DNA from: a virus
DNA length: 33,481 nucleotides
Strand: one strand, 5' to 3'
UHGV virus genome: UHGV-0034894
Shown here: positions 25,342 through 33,199 of the stretch, one piece after another
Layout of the letters: each line of letters starts with the position of its first letter
Numbering within the stretch: position 1 is the stretch's first letter
Made by a program: the position numbers and the translations under genes
The notes under the pieces: generated by a model
Told to the model about the DNA's origin: nothing
What the model saw: only the letters and a program-made list of their open reading frames with translations
Databases searched by the model: none

Positions 25342-25764
25342 TTATGCCGCCGGGCAGCTCCTTCGCAAAGTCCTGATAGCCTTAGGCTTTGACTGAACTG
25401 CTTGATCCATTTCCAGAACCACGTCCAGCATAGCCAGGCAGCCGTCGATAAATCCCTCTGCAGCCTGGAGCCTCTTCAGAACTTGAGTGTGTGATACGCC
25501 GAGCTTCACACCCATAGCCCTCACAGGCATCGCCTGGATGTAATGCCACTCAAGGAGCGTACACAGGTACGGATCTTTTTTCTTCAGGCAGTTCATAGCA
25601 GAGCTGATGATCAGACCGTCATTGTCACTGCACTTCAGCCGCCCGGCTTGCGTTGCAGGTAGCAGATTCTTAAATCCAGCGGAAACAGGTGGATAGTAGA
25701 CACTGCAACCTTCGCTCGCAGCCCAGCCCCCCCATCGCTCTAAAACCAGTCGAATATCACGCAT
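25342..25764 (-). CDS. Late-gene antiterminator Q-like protein
   Basis: Position immediately upstream of late leader/terminator and lysis cassette; resembles Q-like proteins from memory. Confidence 0.55.
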   Translation of the reverse strand: MRDIRLVLERWGGWAASEGCSVYYPPVSAGFKNLLPATQAGRLKCSDNDGLIISSAMNCLKKKDPYLCTLLEWHYIQAMPVRAMGVKLGVSHTQVLKRLQAAEGFIDGCLAMLDVVLEMDQAVQSKPKAIRTLRRSCPAA

Positions 25765-26395: not shown

Positions 26396-28657
26396 TTACA
26401 ATCCAGATTGCAAAATTTCGCAAGATTTATATATTTCGCGCAATTCTTCGTTGCTGAAATCGTTATTTTTTACAAGAATCCAAATCCTATATACAAACCC
26501 GTCAATTTTTACGCGTACGGGTTCCCGCTTTGTTCTTTCTTTCAAAATGCGAGTAATATGCTTCTGGTTAATTTCTACATCCATTCCTGCTTCTGCCAGT
26601 ATTGCGTTAACAATTTGTTGATAAGTCATTGCTGGCACAGGCGGATTATCCAGGATTTCAATAAGAGCAGCCTCCACATCGCTCTTATTGCTTTCAATCA
26701 TCAGAAGGCGTTCTTTCGTCTCGGGGGCGCGCTGCCAGTTAAAGCGAGACAGGTCAACGCCCATCAGATACCAGTACACCTGGGCGATAAAGTCGCTGTC
26801 GCTTAGCGCACCGTACAGGCTGGCGTAATGCTCTTCAGTTGCGGCGAAGTCAGGGCCCCCCAGCACAGCGATACGTCGGTCTTCCTCTGGCAGCGCCAGC
26901 GCATCAAAGTGGTTGGTGTAGAACAGAAAGCCGGTGTATATATCCATCGTTTTTTTGCTGCCATATTTGCGGTTCACTTCAAACCGTGGTTCTGTCAGCA
27001 CGTCACGGATCTTATCGTTCACCTCATACCGCTTATCATTTTCGCGCACCTCGTCAATGGTGCATAGAAGCGTATTGTACAGATAGTCATGGAACTGGTT
27101 ATCGCACAGGATCTTCATGCGAGTACGAGCACAGTTCCACGGACCAAGCACGCGCTCCATTAACTGGCTGACCCATCCTCTGCCCGTACCATGTGCGGAA
27201 GCCACATGCAGAATAGAAATCGGGCATCGACGCTCCGGACGCTGAACCATCCACCCCAGACGGGCGATGAAAAACTCGCGCTGCCAGGCATCAGGTACCA
27301 GATACGCCATATGATTAAGGAACGTGGACACCTTACTTGTATCCGCTGTACGTGGATGCTCAGGCATATAAAATTCGTTTATCTCAAACCGCCCGTCGAA
27401 ACGCTCGATAATACGTCCCGCACCGGGCTTATAGCCTGTCGTCTCAGCAATCTTCTTATGCCGATGCTCTATCCACCGTTTGGTTGCGGGAGTTGGTTGC
27501 CCTTTCCCTTCTGGCGGGAACTGGTAAGGCGCCATCAGGTTTTTGAACGACTTCATATCCATCATGCACTGATATGGCGGTCGGCTAAGATCACATACCT
27601 GGTCACCCTCGATGACGTAGATAAAGCGTTCCAGAAAATGAGCTGTCATATCTGTATTAATATCGGTAAATTCAGGCTTATCGCCATCTTCAACCACCGT
27701 GAGATCTTCGAACAGGGATTGCGTATAGCCGTAGCCTTCCAGCCAGTCGGCATCAGTAAGCCCCGCATCGGTGTTGTGCATGCTTTTAAAATGTCCCTGT
27801 TCAAATCCCCCCGTCCCTTTTGGGAAATACTTAATGGATGTTTCGCTGCAACCGTTGCTGTATTCTGACTCATCCCGAAACGGTTTCAGATTGCGGGAAC
27901 CATCAGAGCTGACTGACAGAGTCCACCCGTTCGCGTCAAGCCAGTCGGCGACATCATCTGTCGCGGAAGGATCAACACAGGAAAGATCACGCTGACGTCC
28001 TGCACCTGCGGTATAGCTGTCTTTCACGGGTAAGTTATCCGCCAGACGCTGCCACAGGCTTTCGAGCTGTTCAGATGTAATTTTCAGAGGTTCGCCGGGC
28101 AGACCGCAGTCCCACTGAATACGTTCGCCTGCCGGATGGGTACCACAAGCCACAAACTGCTGGCCCTTAGCGAGCAGCTCTATTTGTTTGTTTTCGCCTT
28201 CCAGGCGGTGACCACGTTTACGGTAGTCGCCATCAACAGCAATCAGGTACAGGCATTTATGACTGTCAGCCCGCCAGCGACGTGGCGGAAGTTCCCCCAG
28301 GCATGACAGGATAATATTGCGTACGATCTCCTGCATCCCGGCGTCATTGATATCGCAGTCCAGAGCCACCACCCCGTCGCCAGTACGAACGCAAATACCG
28401 TAATCGGGTTCGTTCGACCACCGGGCAAAATCGTTTTCCGTAACAACATAGTTAGCCCAGTCGGGGATACCAACAACCTTACGTTGGCCATTGTAGCGAC
28501 TGGGGGTTTTGCCGAAATTATGAGACAGCTTGCTATTAGGCGACAGTTCTGCACAGGGATTGGACACCACAGGTAAAAGCCTGTCTGTCATCCCCAACAC
28601 CAGATCGAAGTGGAACCACTCATCGGGCGTAGCTCCCCATGGTTTGTTATCAGACAT
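26396..28657 (-). CDS. Replication protein: AEP-type primase-polymerase N-terminal domain with C-terminal NTPase/helicase-like region
   Basis: 753 aa; DxD-like motif LDCDIND; directly downstream of cro; adjacent iterons. Confidence 0.6.
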   Translation of the reverse strand: MSDNKPWGATPDEWFHFDLVLGMTDRLLPVVSNPCAELSPNSKLSHNFGKTPSRYNGQRKVVGIPDWANYVVTENDFARWSNEPDYGICVRTGDGVVALDCDINDAGMQEIVRNIILSCLGELPPRRWRADSHKCLYLIAVDGDYRKRGHRLEGENKQIELLAKGQQFVACGTHPAGERIQWDCGLPGEPLKITSEQLESLWQRLADNLPVKDSYTAGAGRQRDLSCVDPSATDDVADWLDANGWTLSVSSDGSRNLKPFRDESEYSNGCSETSIKYFPKGTGGFEQGHFKSMHNTDAGLTDADWLEGYGYTQSLFEDLTVVEDGDKPEFTDINTDMTAHFLERFIYVIEGDQVCDLSRPPYQCMMDMKSFKNLMAPYQFPPEGKGQPTPATKRWIEHRHKKIAETTGYKPGAGRIIERFDGRFEINEFYMPEHPRTADTSKVSTFLNHMAYLVPDAWQREFFIARLGWMVQRPERRCPISILHVASAHGTGRGWVSQLMERVLGPWNCARTRMKILCDNQFHDYLYNTLLCTIDEVRENDKRYEVNDKIRDVLTEPRFEVNRKYGSKKTMDIYTGFLFYTNHFDALALPEEDRRIAVLGGPDFAATEEHYASLYGALSDSDFIAQVYWYLMGVDLSRFNWQRAPETKERLLMIESNKSDVEAALIEILDNPPVPAMTYQQIVNAILAEAGMDVEINQKHITRILKERTKREPVRVKIDGFVYRIWILVKNNDFSNEELREIYKSCEILQSGL

Positions 28658-28660
28658 GGG

Positions 28661-28861
28661 TTACGCCTTTTGTCTAGCTGTCACTTCCTGAAAAAGCTTT
28701 TCTATCGCACGTACTGTAGAAAAGCGAGGGTCAGAATGAACCCCGGTGAGAAGCCGACTAATAGAAGACTGCTTCACGCCTGCAATTTCGGCAATTTGGT
28801 TTTGGGTATACCCTGAATCAATCAAGCTTTTGACCATCTCTTGTGGTGTTAGTCCGGACAT
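28661..28861 (-). CDS. Cro-like HTH transcriptional regulator
   Basis: 66 aa with HTH (QNQIAEIAGVKQSSISRLL); divergent from repressor gene. Confidence 0.65.
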   Translation of the reverse strand: MSGLTPQEMVKSLIDSGYTQNQIAEIAGVKQSSISRLLTGVHSDPRFSTVRAIEKLFQEVTARQKA

Positions 28862-29002
28862 ATTTAAGTCTCCACTTTCGTCTATAGCGCAAATTTATAC
28901 GAAAACGGATTATTCAGCAATACGGCAATTCTATATCATCCTGGATTAAAATATCCGATAACGCATAATCACCGTCCCTGTATACAACATGGATGAATCC
29001 AA
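28862..29002. promoter_or_regulatory. Divergent cI/cro promoter-operator region
   Basis: 141-bp AT-rich gap between divergent regulators; contains GATAACGCATAAT motif also found downstream of cI. Confidence 0.5.
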
Positions 29003-29677
29003 ATGATTGATACTACCGATATCCTTTCTCAAAACATCAAGTACCTGATGGACAAAGCCAAGATAAGCTCGATAACTGAGCTGGCACGTCGGTTACAACT
29101 GAACCAACCAACGCTACACAGGCTGGTATCAGGAGAGGTGAAAGATCCGAAATACGCAACGTTAAAGCAGATCGCCGACTACTTCCACGTGTCACCAATA
29201 GACCTGGCAGAAAGGAGCCTTCAAGAAATGGAGAAAGAGGACGCGACGGGTATAAAAACGTATATTTCTCTTAGGTTTAATAAAGTACCTGTTTTGGGAA
29301 ACACTCAGCTAGGCGTTGGAGGACTTTGGAGCGACACCCAATATTCAGTAGGTAGCAGTGATGGTTTCATATACTGGCCGACAAAGGATGAAGATGCATA
29401 CGCCCTGAAATGTGTTGGTGATTCAATGATGCCTAGAATCAAAGAGGGTGAGTTCGTAATCGTCGAACCCAACCACGACTACACTCCTGGTGATGAAGTA
29501 CTTGTGGTTACCCGGGACGGTGAGGTCATGGTTAAAACCTTCTTGTTCGAACGCGATGGCCTGTTCCATCTAATGTCTGTAAATGAAGATCATCCACCAG
29601 TCAGAGTACCACGCGAAAACATTGAAAAAATCCATTACGTGGCGGGGATCGCCAAATCCGCGCTACGCATGTACTAA
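29003..29677 (+). CDS. CI-like prophage repressor (HTH plus S24 LexA-like autopeptidase domain)
   Basis: N-terminal HTH; C-terminal GDSM catalytic Ser context and conserved Lys (VMVKTF). Confidence 0.85.
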   Translation: MIDTTDILSQNIKYLMDKAKISSITELARRLQLNQPTLHRLVSGEVKDPKYATLKQIADYFHVSPIDLAERSLQEMEKEDATGIKTYISLRFNKVPVLGNTQLGVGGLWSDTQYSVGSSDGFIYWPTKDEDAYALKCVGDSMMPRIKEGEFVIVEPNHDYTPGDEVLVVTRDGEVMVKTFLFERDGLFHLMSVNEDHPPVRVPRENIEKIHYVAGIAKSALRMY

Positions 29678-29707: not shown

Positions 29708-29740
29708 AAACCGCTCTCCACAAGGGCGGTTTTCTTATTT
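29708..29740 (+). terminator. Rho-independent terminator downstream of cI
   Basis: AAACCGC-(11-nt loop)-GCGGUUU followed by a U-rich tract. Confidence 0.5.
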
Positions 29741-29761
29741 GCAAAATAATTCATTTTCGTA

Positions 29762-29790
29762 TTGACGCAAAATCCCATAACGCATATAAA
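29762..29790 (+). promoter_or_regulatory. Strong sigma70-like promoter (TTGACG-17 bp-TATAAA) with overlapping operator-like ACGCATA motifs
   Basis: Near-consensus -35/-10 with 17-bp spacer read directly; CGCATAATTAATGCG near-palindrome just downstream. Confidence 0.5.
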
Positions 29791-30052
29791 TACGATACCG
29801 CATAATTAATGCGTTTTTTAATACCAGCTCTTTAACAAACTGAACCGCGTGACAGGTAAGCCGCAGTACTCCTGGCAAAATGAAATGGCACCCGATGGGA
29901 TCGAGGTAAGCGCCGAGTCCGTATGCGTACGGTAAGCGTAGAGGACAACACCGCGACGAACTGATAAGTCACGCAAGTTGAAACGCCCCGACGATGGGGC
30001 GCTTAGTTCCTTTAACTCTGGGTGGCCGGAAGGGTACCCATGCTTAAAGAAA

Positions 30053-30622
30053 TTACTGGTTGTAAGGATCGTAATCCGTGATTGCCTTCCCCGGATTTTC
30101 ATCTTCAGCAGGCAGTCTGGCCTCTAAAGCATTTCGGTTGAACAGATAGGAAGCCCTACAGTGCGAACAAACCATATTAACGGCTCGCCCAAGGCCTGGC
30201 TTAATAACCAGACCTTCCGCTTGCAATATAGATTTTCTCTTTTGCTCGTAGCAATTGGGACAAATATAAACCGGAGATTGGTCAGTATCTGCAGAAAGCT
30301 TGCTGCGATAGACCAGAGTACCCCGCATAGGCTGGTAAAGTTCATAGCTCGCCGCTTCAGCGGCCCAGTTCTCTTGCTTTACTTTCTCATTTTCCAGTTC
30401 AACAATTTTCTCCTTAGCCGCAATCAGCAGCTCCTGAAGCGACATTTGCTGCATCTGAACATCCATTAGCTTATCGAGTAAGGTGTGCGTCTTCTCTTTA
30501 ACTGCATAGTCGACAGTCAGATTCTGAATCTCTCTTGCTGCTCCAACCGCGCCTTTAATTGCTCCTCCCACGCCGGATAACGATTCAGTTATCCGGGAAA
30601 GAATTCCTTTTTCTTCAGACAT
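30053..30622 (-). CDS. Coiled-coil / zinc-ribbon protein (189 aa) in the immunity region; candidate accessory gene
   Basis: CPNC...(21 aa)...CSHC zinc-ribbon motif after a predicted coiled coil; convergent with cI. Confidence 0.6.
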   Translation of the reverse strand: MSEEKGILSRITESLSGVGGAIKGAVGAAREIQNLTVDYAVKEKTHTLLDKLMDVQMQQMSLQELLIAAKEKIVELENEKVKQENWAAEAASYELYQPMRGTLVYRSKLSADTDQSPVYICPNCYEQKRKSILQAEGLVIKPGLGRAVNMVCSHCRASYLFNRNALEARLPAEDENPGKAITDYDPYNQ

Positions 30623-30636
30623 ATCTAATCTCTCTC

Positions 30637-30684
30637 AAACTGTAGGGGTGAAGAGATATTAGACGATTTCTCACTGTAGGGGTA
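30637..30684. repeat. Direct repeat ACTGTAGGGGT x2 (33 bp apart) immediately upstream of the 189-aa gene
   Basis: Read directly; candidate regulator binding sites. Confidence 0.5.
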
Positions 30685-30761
30685 CAAGGAGAACCACCTC
30701 GCCTGATGTGGTTAAAAGCAGGCACTCGATGATATCCATGTAATTGCTGTGTGTAGTCTTT

Positions 30762-30788
30762 GCCCGCCGCAAATGACGGGCTTTTTTA
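30762..30788 (+). terminator. Plus-strand rho-independent terminator upstream of the early plus-strand operon
   Basis: GCCCG-(10-nt loop)-CGGGC followed by UUUUUU. Confidence 0.5.
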
Positions 30789-30846
30789 TGTCTGAAAGCG
30801 CACTCGCAACAGCGCGCTCCCCGATATGAAAAAAGGAATACAACCG

Positions 30847-30996
30847 ATGAAACCTGAACACCTCTATCGACTGACGGGGCGCGATGTTCTCCGTTATCGC
30901 CGTAAAAACTTCGATTTGATGACCGGTCTGGCCGTTGCCACTGCGCTCGGTCTGATCATCACTTTCATTCTCCTTGTAGCGAGGACCACAGTATGA
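30847..30996 (+). CDS. Small membrane protein (49 aa), not in ORF track
   Basis: AAAGGAA SD 9 nt upstream of ATG; basic N-terminus then TM helix (LAVATALGLIITFILLVA); stop overlaps the next ATG (ATGA). Confidence 0.4.
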   Translation: MKPEHLYRLTGRDVLRYRRKNFDLMTGLAVATALGLIITFILLVARTTV

Positions 30997-31895
30997 GTTT
31001 AGAAACCAGTCTCGAACTTAATAATCAACTTCTGGCACAACATAATGCGCTGCTTGAACGTCTTATCCGCACAATGGCATCAGGTATTGTTATGCATCCT
31101 GACACGATTTCACGAGTGCAGGAATGTCGGGATACAGCAACTGAAACTGAAAATATGTCAGCGGCAATGACACTGGATGATCTGGAGTTCAGCGACGTTA
31201 TCGCACTGGCTGGTTTCTACCCAGTAGCCACCCCTATCACAGAAGACATGCTGCAACGTGCTGTTGCCTACCGTGATGCTGAAGGCGATAAACGAGTAGT
31301 TCAGATTGATGCTCTCGACAGCGCATTGCAGGGCGTCAAACGAGCCAGGGCGCTGCTTAAACCTGCTCTCCTGGACCTGTCCCGTAACATCCTTAAGTTC
31401 TGGGACGACCTGCCAACCATCGGCGAGCGACGTGCTTTTGCCGAGCAGCTACTTGATGCACCTGCGGATGGGCGTGATGAAGTTAAGCCGAAAAAGGCCA
31501 GTAACAAAGATGGAGAACGCACGGGGCCGTTTTACGTCAAAAATGTATCCGGCACAGCAGCCAGTGAACTCCACACCTTACGCAAGTTGAACGAGATGCT
31601 GAAAAAAGGCCATATCGAGACCAACCGTGTTGAGTACCTTCAGCTGCAGGAAGAATTTGCACGCAGAGACACAGCAAATTCCAGCCAGAATAATGACGCC
31701 AAAGATGACCATACAATTGATTTCGCGGCACTACGCAAACAAGCTGAAGGGTTGATCCTCCAGTTAGCAAAAGGGGGTTACCGGGCAGAAGCTATTGCAA
31801 TTCTGGAAAAACAGGGAGCCAGGAAACTTGGTGAAGTAACGGATGAAAATCTCGCTGAAGTAATCACCCTGGCTGAAAAAGCACTGGAGGGTTAA
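30993..31895 (+). CDS. Hypothetical early protein (300 aa), likely partner of the downstream nuclease
   Basis: Tight 3-bp spacing to nuclease gene; no family recognised. Confidence 0.5.
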
Positions 31896-31897
31896 TC

Positions 31898-33199
31898 ATG
31901 CCAGACGTTCATGCACAACTTTCTCCATCATCAGCGCATCGATGGATGCGCTGCCCAGGAAGTCTGGCGCTGGAGGCCACACAACCGGATAAAGAAACAA
32001 CTTTTGCAATCGAGGGCACTGCAGCGCACGCGCTTGCTGAAAAAGTTCTACGAAACAGGCAAAGCCACCCGGAACACTACGCCGGATGCAATGTTTCTAT
32101 GTTTCTCGGCTCATACCCCCTTCGCGAAAATCCTGATGATACATCTGGCCCACAGGTGGATGATGAAATGGTCGAAGCCGTTGGCCGGTATGTTGATACG
32201 GTCTGGACTCTTGCACAGAATAATGAACTATTGGTTGAACAACGTGTTGATTTCTCACATATAACGGGTGTGGAAGAATCTTTCGGAACTGCCGACGGCA
32301 TAATCATCGCTGGTAGCGAATTACAAATCCACGACCTGAAATATGGCAAAGGCGTCCGCATTGATGCAGAACAAAATGAGCAACTACAACTGTATGCTCT
32401 GGGTGCTCTCGAACAATTCAGCATGCTGTATGACTTTGAGACTGTAAGATTATTTATTCACCAGCCAAGGCTCAACCACGTTTCAGAATGGTCGTTAACC
32501 GTGCAGGAACTTCAGTCTTTCGGTAAACGAGCACAGGAGGCCGCAACCAGTGCGATCCTTGTTCTCAATATTGCTGAATGCGAAGGCATTGAGACACTAC
32601 CGCTGGAAAACTTCATACCTGGAGAAAAGCAGTGCCGCTTCTGTAAAGCAAAAGCTATTTGCACTGCCCAGAAAATGCAGCATTTACAAACAGCGGCCAG
32701 CGACTTTGAAGATCTGACAAAGCCTGTCAGCGAAATAATCACCAATGCCAGCGCACGTGTACCTCTGTTAACCATTGAGCAGCTTGCGGAGATCTATAGC
32801 CAGGCCGACTTTATTGAGTCCTGGCTAAAGGCAGTACGGGACCGGGTTCACAATGAACTCAATGCCGGACATCCGGTACCGGGGTTTAAACTGGTAACAG
32901 GAAAACAAGGTAACCGGGCCTGGAGTGATGAAGAGGCAGCTCGCGCACTTCTGAAGGACCAGTTCAGGTACAAAACTGAAGAAGTATTCGACTTTAAACT
33001 TATTAGTCCCACAAAAGCCGAAAAACTTATCAAAAAGGCCAGTCCACGCCGTTGGTCAAAAGTCGAGGCACTGATAACACGAGCTGATGGTAAACCAACC
33101 GTCGTTCCCGAGTCAGACCCACGCCCCGCACTCAATATCAACCCTGTAAATGATTTCGACGACGTATCCGACGATACGCTAACCGCAGACCTCATCTGA
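31898..33199 (+). CDS. PD-(D/E)XK nuclease with Cas4-like 4-Cys cluster (DUF2800-like phage exonuclease)
   Basis: N-terminal [14 protein letters not shown], catalytic-like D...[13 protein letters not shown]-terminal [10 protein letters not shown]. Confidence 0.7.

Follow-up and report, generated by a model that had tools for sequence, protein, structure and literature searches.

Few RNAs are known to bring about processive antitermination by themselves; put in HK022-like phages, which acts on the beta' zinc-binding domain of RNA polymerase, and EAR in Bacillus are two of them. The put RNA of HK022, a structured nascent RNA directly downstream of a repressor-controlled early promoter, is about 70 nt long, folds into two stem-loops, carries no boxA and is reported to need no protein factor (PMC9378689). 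In the nut sites of lambdoid phages (phi80 nutL for example), a boxA, a spacer and an RNA structure follow each other in that order near pL, the structure being boxB, a hairpin some 15 nt in length that N recognises through its arginine-rich motif. The rrn-type boxA/Nus arrangement found in rRNA and in CRISPR array leaders goes with long untranslated transcripts and is described as anti-Rho, without N; boxA by itself is reportedly enough to keep Rho from terminating untranslated CRISPR transcripts (PMC7665894). The E. coli rrn boxA and spacer sequence has also been used in NusA/NusB binding work (PMC2724277).

The locus described here can be set beside each of these systems. As with put, a structured RNA would be made directly downstream of a putative repressor-controlled early promoter, and in sister phages put itself occupies the identical slot behind the identical promoter, followed by the same terminator and the same early operon; unlike put, it is a module of 177 nt with a three-way junction and a consensus boxA at its start. 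As in phi80 nutL, boxA, spacer and RNA structure stand in order near a pL-like promoter, but a junction domain of about 130 nt takes the place of boxB. With the rrn-type arrangement the module shares the identity of a 12-nt boxA and spacer and a long untranslated transcript, whereas it faces a conserved intrinsic terminator and possesses a large conserved structure. Judged from its sequence, the module appears to fail the defining features of put and of nut/N and to exceed an rrn-type boxA. It is fairly likely, in our estimation, that the locus comprises a pL-like early promoter followed by a cis-acting, boxA-containing processive antiterminator RNA, which would probably be a hitherto undescribed means for early phage transcripts to bypass terminators.

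The window (the whole stretch of DNA that was analysed, 33,481 nt of the virus genome UHGV-0034894) contains a region identical to the Escherichia phages vB_EcoM-606R2, 689R2, 611R5 and 683R1 and belongs to a temperate phage. Its features are as follows:

26396-28657, minus strand: primase-helicase
28661-28861, minus strand: cro-like HTH protein
29003-29677, plus strand: CI-like repressor with HTH and S24 peptidase
29708-29732, plus strand: cI intrinsic terminator, a 10-bp stem followed by a T-run (-13.4 kcal/mol, z -4.5)
29762-29790, plus strand: pL-like early sigma-70 promoter (-35 TTGACG at 29762-29767, 17-bp spacer, -10 TATAAA at 29785-29790)
29770-29804, plus strand: tandem operator-like 17-mers, a direct repeat spanning the spacer, the -10 and the start site
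about 29791-30052, plus strand: non-coding DNA, about 260 nt
29799-29819, plus strand: palindrome CGCATAATTAATGCG followed by T6, right after the predicted start and upstream of boxA (-4.8 kcal/mol)
29827-29838, plus strand: boxA GCTCTTTAACAA, the 5' boundary of the module, about 30 nt from the predicted start
30004-30830, no strand given: variable cargo slot, holding in the window the zinc-ribbon gene, its 3' hairpin and its upstream region
30004-30052: 3' hairpin of the zinc-ribbon gene
30053-30622, minus strand: convergent gene for a 189-aa coiled-coil and zinc-ribbon protein, the end of its stop codon at 30053
30762-30787, plus strand: intrinsic terminator GCCCGCC-loop-GACGGGC-T6, about 60 nt before the gene for the 49-aa early peptide
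30847-33199, plus strand: start of the early operon, presumably served by the promoter
30847-30996, plus strand: early-operon 49-aa membrane peptide
30993-31895, plus strand: early-operon 300-aa protein
31898-33199, plus strand: early-operon DUF2800 PD-(D/E)XK nuclease

Elsewhere in the window, an ORF at 25342-25764 (minus strand) is annotated as antitermination protein Q in an identical phage record, so that a lambdoid-style late Q system and an RNA-based early system appear to coexist in this phage.

The initial annotation had placed a promoter of the form TTGACG-17 bp-TATAAA just past the cI terminator, and it is present as described, 30 bp after the terminator, with transcription predicted to start at about A29797. 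The -35 matches five of the six consensus positions and so does the -10, in which -11A is present and -7T is absent. The lack of -7T genuinely weakens the site, and it is the only reason why a consensus scanner, whose rule demands a T there, left the promoter out. Chance alone would give 4.0 promoter-like matches in this AT-rich region, where 2 were observed, so that such a match is in itself unremarkable; it is conservation and position that speak for the promoter. TTGACA-17-TATAAA is carried by the most frequent sister immunity type (23 loci), and in the Yersinia phage YeP4 the -35 and the CATATAAAT block are conserved while the flanks have diverged. The site also occupies the position of the annotated pL of HK022/O276 and phi80, downstream of cI and directed away from it. 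Conservation and position together lend the promoter credibility.

The operator-like 17-mer AAATCCCATAACGCATA at 29770-29786 is followed by a second copy at 29788-29804 with 82% identity, and between cI and cro (about 28953-28968) a related one, TCCGATAACGCATAAT, is present. The initial annotation had described an operator-like motif that overlaps the promoter and recurs between cI and cro; it is real as a cluster, since 5 of the 16 CGCAWAWW sites of the window sit in the promoter and cI-cro regions, the whole-window count itself being at chance (16 observed against 14.2 expected). The palindrome CGCATAATTAATGCG was found only with the immunity type of the window and forms part of an immunity-specific segment; a terminator scan flags it as terminator-like, but weak, and it is more likely an operator than a weak 5' hairpin. 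The sequence upstream of the promoter also varies by immunity type. The proposal of a repressor-controlled, pL-like promoter would fit these observations, namely the place and orientation of pL, the repeats over the -10 and the start site, and an upstream region linked to the immunity type.

The limits of the RNA module were obtained from BLAST matches. The region is present in 104 of 5426 complete E. coli genomes, and many matches begin exactly at 29827, with another immunity region upstream, or stop at 30001-30013, with other cargo downstream; these sharp, recurrent breakpoints define 29827-30003, of 177 nt, as the module. Its 5' boundary, GCTCTTTAACAA, has a single exact copy within the window and is identical to the E. 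coli rrn boxA-spacer oligonucleotide ugcucuuuaacaauuua (PMC2724277, Table 1). Among 51 loci gathered without any boxA pattern, 48 carry GCTCTTTAACAA and three carry GTTCTTTAACAA, and a pattern without boxA recovered 93 true elements, 92 of which have one. Five sequence types, A to E, can be told apart among the copies of the module, with identities down to roughly 60%; in type E the match of boxA and spacer to the rrn sequence extends to 16 nt, and one type E copy (L183) is without boxA. A pattern search returned about 90 IMG/VR contigs together with Pseudocitrobacter, Citrobacter and Trabulsiella genomes, and phages of Citrobacter, Trabulsiella, Yersinia and Enterobacter are also among the carriers. 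The module stands behind at least 41 different promoter/operator regions and always on the strand of the promoter: in 40 of 41 upstream regions a sigma-70-like promoter points into it, with the end of the -10 located 17-66 nt before boxA.

The fold downstream of boxA was derived by hand from the five types and then used for a covariance-model alignment. Its elements are as follows:

29847-29974, plus strand: three-way-junction RNA domain
29847-29853 with 29968-29974, plus strand: P1, a long-range helix that covaries between types
29860-29873 with 29942-29957, plus strand: P3-P4, the second long helix
29874-29889, plus strand: unpaired A-rich junction strand GGCAAAAYGAAAURGC, conserved and almost invariant
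29890-29907, plus strand: H1 hairpin, with a bulged A at 29904
29910-29939, plus strand: H2 hairpin, variable and dispensable
29938-29946, plus strand: conserved GUAGAGGAY
29984-30001, plus strand: terminal hairpin CGCCCC-GACGAT-GGGGCG (-12.9 kcal/mol), the 3' end of the module in types A, B and D

None of the helices includes boxA. The two perfect hairpins pointed out in the initial annotation exist and are conserved; the one at 29919-29932 is the inner stem of H2 and the one at 29984-30001 is the terminal hairpin. Compensatory changes were found across the five types in P1, P3, H1, H2 and the terminal hairpin. P1 reads GCGUGAC/GUCACGC in types A and D, GAGUGAC/GUCACUC in type B, GCAUGAC/GUCAUGC in type C, GUGUGAC/GUCACAC in L140 and GCACUG/CAGUGC in type E, whereas the four central pairs of H1 vary by type as CGAU/AUCG, GGUA/UACC, GCGA/UCGC and CAAUCC/GGAUUG. 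Covariance modelling across relatives, which the initial annotation had suggested, found the module conserved: in an alignment of 52 distinct sequences 93.7% of cells were paired, compared with 26-38% in slid controls, and 33 of 44 base pairs had changed on both sides among the five types, figures that come from an alignment fitted to the model and therefore favour the structure, whereas the P1 and H1 comparisons are legible in the unaligned sequences. A sequence-only alignment of types A, B and D gave weaker covariation (7 pairs changed on both sides), and a plain MAFFT alignment misaligned the five types, so that RNAalifold recovered almost no structure from it. P3 contains a C-A mismatch in most type A copies.

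Natural variants bear on the same fold. Two copies (L053 and L140) carry a clean deletion of H2, and another (L148) is without the A-rich strand and H1; in the three of them the deletion endpoints fall in GGTAAGCG repeats. Two other candidate elements were rejected. The three GGTAAGC repeats are not a conserved motif, being specific to type A and acting as deletion endpoints, and a pairing of boxA (UUUAAC) with the GUUGAA before the terminal hairpin, suggested by RNAalifold, was discarded since the 3' partner varies while boxA is fixed.

A further comparison is offered by the sister phages. Related loci (79) were collected through the DUF2800 protein, with no reference to the RNA: the slot behind the promoter contains the module in 51 of them, a putL homologue in 22, both in none and neither in six. 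The last group consists of three truncated contigs plus L131, L166 and L170, of which one also appears truncated and two show a different upstream arrangement. The putL homologues are 79-84% identical to the putL of HK022, HK75, O276 and HK639, annotated as 'antiterminator RNA', and align with it, compensatory changes included. In L086 and L100 the end of cI, the operators, the -35 and the -10 are common to both, and the sequences diverge just after the -10 into the module or put, which suggests that one promoter can drive either RNA. Moreover, put replaces the module on backbones whose DUF2800 protein is 100% identical. No sequence similarity was detected between the two RNAs, and blastn of the region against phage records returned no put-carrying phage.

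The putL homologues were located at 4460-4560 in L100, 4277-4369 in L154 and 3809-3899 in L137, and in 19 further loci; these sister-phage homologues sit behind a TTTACA-17-TATCTT/TAGATT promoter, ahead of the same early operon. Their presence places put-type antitermination in a non-lambdoid group of phages named as myoviruses (vB_EcoM). A conserved non-coding block, CTCAAGGGCATGNGCGCGGCCACTGCGRGAGTGTGGCGAAGT, was also noticed in the long GC-rich leaders downstream of put-type and boxA-type modules of different phages, and it may be another structured RNA. Its positions are:

L003, 3883-3925: CTCAAGGGCATGNGCGCGGCCACTGCGRGAGTGTGGCGAAGT block
L154, 4583-4625: CTCAAGGGCATGNGCGCGGCCACTGCGRGAGTGTGGCGAAGT block
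L065, about 1645-1600, minus strand: CTCAAGGGCATGNGCGCGGCCACTGCGRGAGTGTGGCGAAGT block

The region between the RNA slot and the early operon is divided into a variable and a conserved part. In the window the variable part is the zinc-ribbon gene, whose protein matches the functionally uncharacterised family phrog_1244; Pfam, PADLOC and NCBIfam gave no match for it. Other members of the family harbor different cargo, cargo in the opposite orientation or none, with the module unchanged (co-oriented cargo in L005 and L100, different cargo in L004 and no cargo in L162); in YeP4 the same early genes come directly after the leader. This comparison indicates that the zinc-ribbon gene is swappable cargo. 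Upstream of it, on the side of the minus-strand promoter, two direct copies of CTGTAGGGGT (30640-30650 and 30674-30685) are conserved in L004, which has a related but different cargo gene, and may form a putative regulator binding site. The initial annotation had the non-coding stretch overlap the 3' end of the convergent gene; it abuts that gene only, since the stop codon ends at 30053, and a transcript from the promoter would be antisense to the gene only further downstream.

The conserved part is an intrinsic terminator on the plus strand. A folding-based finder (a strict finder had missed a known terminator) located one downstream of the RNA slot and ahead of the early operon in 50 of 52 module loci and all 22 put loci, irrespective of the cargo. 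The terminator was noted in L004, L100, L154 and most of L100-L178, where the loop varies, and a few loci use the alternative stem GCCCCTCG...AGAGGGGC. The claim that no credible plus-strand ORF follows the promoter for about 1 kb holds: no conserved ORF of at least 30 aa was found on that strand until 30826/30847. In some loci only about 105 nt, a terminator, separates the module from the early gene, so that these loci have no room for the gene of a dedicated factor. As read from the compared loci, the conserved order would be early promoter, antiterminator slot (put or module), cargo hot spot, terminator and early operon.

We infer transcription from the promoter, repression by CI, binding of Nus factors, antitermination and independence of phage proteins, according to the following scheme. 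The promoter would correspond to lambda pL; the CI-like repressor, acting at the operator-like repeats, would keep it silent, and it would fire upon loss of the repressor. The 177-nt cis-acting module would begin about 30 nt into the transcript with boxA single-stranded, and the nascent boxA would recruit the host NusB/NusE(S10) and other Nus factors. The junction domain would stabilise or complete a termination-resistant complex, replacing lambda boxB and N or the HK022 put RNA, and the module would stay with the elongating polymerase and confer resistance to termination. The polymerase could then escape Rho termination along the approximately 1 kb of untranslated leader, continue across the cargo and read through the terminator at 30762-30787 to express the early operon. 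In the window it would run antisense through the zinc-ribbon gene as a consequence of this particular cargo, which is not conserved. Regarding the phage group of the window, the lack of a detected N-like gene, the replaceability by put and the lack of coding room in some loci point to a module that would work with host factors alone. A broader proposal, which we find tentative but quite possible, is that of a third and so far undescribed class of early antitermination in phages, in which a self-sufficient nascent RNA with a consensus rrn-type boxA and a three-way junction in place of the N-boxB complex uses host Nus factors alone, makes the polymerase resist both intrinsic and Rho-dependent terminators, and is swapped freely with put and N/nut in one genomic slot.

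The best of the alternatives, although an unlikely one, is that of a plain anti-Rho leader, in which boxA alone matters and the structured domain has a separate role as a processed stable RNA, a processing or stability element, or a sensor of a ligand or protein that gates lytic development. The capacity reported for boxA alone on CRISPR transcripts (PMC7665894) and the approximately 1 kb of untranslated RNA that follows in the window would suit it, and the combination of conserved junction nucleotides with variable helices resembles the build of an aptamer. This explanation leaves the conserved downstream intrinsic terminator unaccounted for; moreover, no plus-strand terminator or expression platform lies at the 3' end of the module, and Rfam 15 yielded no family match at gathering threshold for the window and seven related loci (the best permissive hit was RsaF, with E = 8). 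Among the three functions proposed in the initial annotation, the 'long leader' comes closest, yet it understates a discrete, covarying 177-nt module that is interchangeable with put, while a free-standing sRNA, with no plus-strand terminator at its 3' end, finds no specific support.

It is improbable that the module is an enlarged nut site needing a phage N-like protein that binds the A-rich strand of the junction, an explanation on which type B bears. This type is found in lambdoid prophages, such as that of E. coli CX07, and consists of the module with a 60-nt 5' extension. The 60-nt leader and boxA are 98.6% identical to the phi80 pL leader through the annotated nutL boxA, and the similarity stops right after boxA, where phi80 has the 'nutL core' hairpin and N and type B has the junction domain. 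Both the layout (boxA, spacer, structure) and this 5' homology are those of a nut site. The nut-site features were therefore sought individually. A boxA (CGCUCUUUA-like) is present near the promoter, at 29827; neither the window nor the type B leaders showed a boxB, in the sense of a short hairpin with an A-rich GNRA-like loop after boxA, and the 128-nt three-way junction occupies the place where a nut site has boxB. With the N proteins of phi80 and lambda as queries, tblastn matched no N-like gene in the window or across the 79 loci L100-L178, a search that a very divergent N could escape; Pfam and PHROGs searches for an N-like protein likewise gave nothing.

The only tblastn matches to N occur in two lambdoid type B loci. 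One of them (L003, 4539-4835) encodes a protein 100% identical to the phi80 'N', 860 nt downstream of the module, and the other (L065, 1425-1105, minus strand) a protein 68% identical to lambda N, 590 nt downstream of it. Neither has a cognate boxB or 'nutL core' in its pL leader or in the remaining available sequence. These N genes beside modules whose leader has no cognate boxB speak for an N-dependent site, and because of them N-independence is not established for the type B hosts. On the other hand, two unrelated N proteins beside near-identical type B modules misfit a specific recognition, and outside type B the explanation meets the lack of a detected N-like gene, the use of put, reported as free of protein factors, on backbones with an identical DUF2800 protein, and the loci without coding room between module and early operon. 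Two further observations belong to this comparison of N systems. Just upstream of the lambda-like N of L065 (about 1500-1462, minus strand) there is a sequence resembling a tRNA 3' end, with a GGTTCGACTCCAGCC T-arm followed by ACCACACCA. The 'Nus-dependent non-lambdoid' mEpimmI coliphages (PMC11893012) were considered as relatives and rejected, as they are a different group and possess the N-like Gp17.

The assignment of the RNA to the plus strand has to be considered separately, since the window copy, read on the plus strand, gains no stability over shuffled sequence (z +0.41) and folds better on the minus strand (z -3.5). Across the types, single-sequence folding energies are mixed as to strand, and the counts of G-U and A-C are equal at 17 pair columns each. 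The terminal hairpin has no U-run after it on the plus strand, and on the minus strand UUUCAACUU comes after it. In types A and B a stop-free minus-strand frame also crosses the element, and public records hold minus-strand 'hypothetical protein' ORFs over the promoter and the module (URC08718.1, WP_134393345.1):

window, 29735-29878, minus strand: annotated hypothetical-protein ORF
window, 29818-30102, minus strand: annotated hypothetical-protein ORF
L003, 3421-3648, minus strand: annotated hypothetical-protein ORF

These points would suit a feature of the minus strand, either a coding ORF or the 3' UTR/terminator region of a cargo gene, which we regard as very improbable. The frame is not conserved, being shifted by a 26-nt deletion and by 1-nt indels and interrupted by stops in types C and E, and the substitutions are compensatory in helices and not synonymous; the annotated proteins are probably spurious. 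The plus strand was assigned by context, with boxA on that strand, promoters leading into the left edge and variable cargo at the right edge, the last of which makes a conserved minus-strand promoter unlikely. The independence of the module from the right-hand cargo and the boxA and plus-strand promoter on its left in 40 of 41 contexts are difficult to reconcile with a minus-strand feature. Antisense control as the main function, the switch of the initial annotation by which the induced early transcript would silence the convergent zinc-ribbon gene, is just as hard to credit, for although the window transcript would run antisense over 30053-30622, the same module occurs with cargo that is co-oriented, different or absent and stops 50 nt before the zinc-ribbon gene; antisense transcriptional interference may well arise as a side effect.

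The preferred reading thus remains that of an early promoter followed by a boxA-containing antiterminator RNA. A literature search, incomplete in its coverage, returned no description of the module, and RefSeq holds nothing or a hypothetical protein at its sites. The natural variants already at hand, that is the exchange of put with the boxA module, the loss of H2 and that of the A-rich strand, provide ready controls. The module is common; it marks the left edge of a prophage cargo hot spot and, if it is an antiterminator, would give a handle on how a Nus-factor complex resists intrinsic terminators without an N protein.
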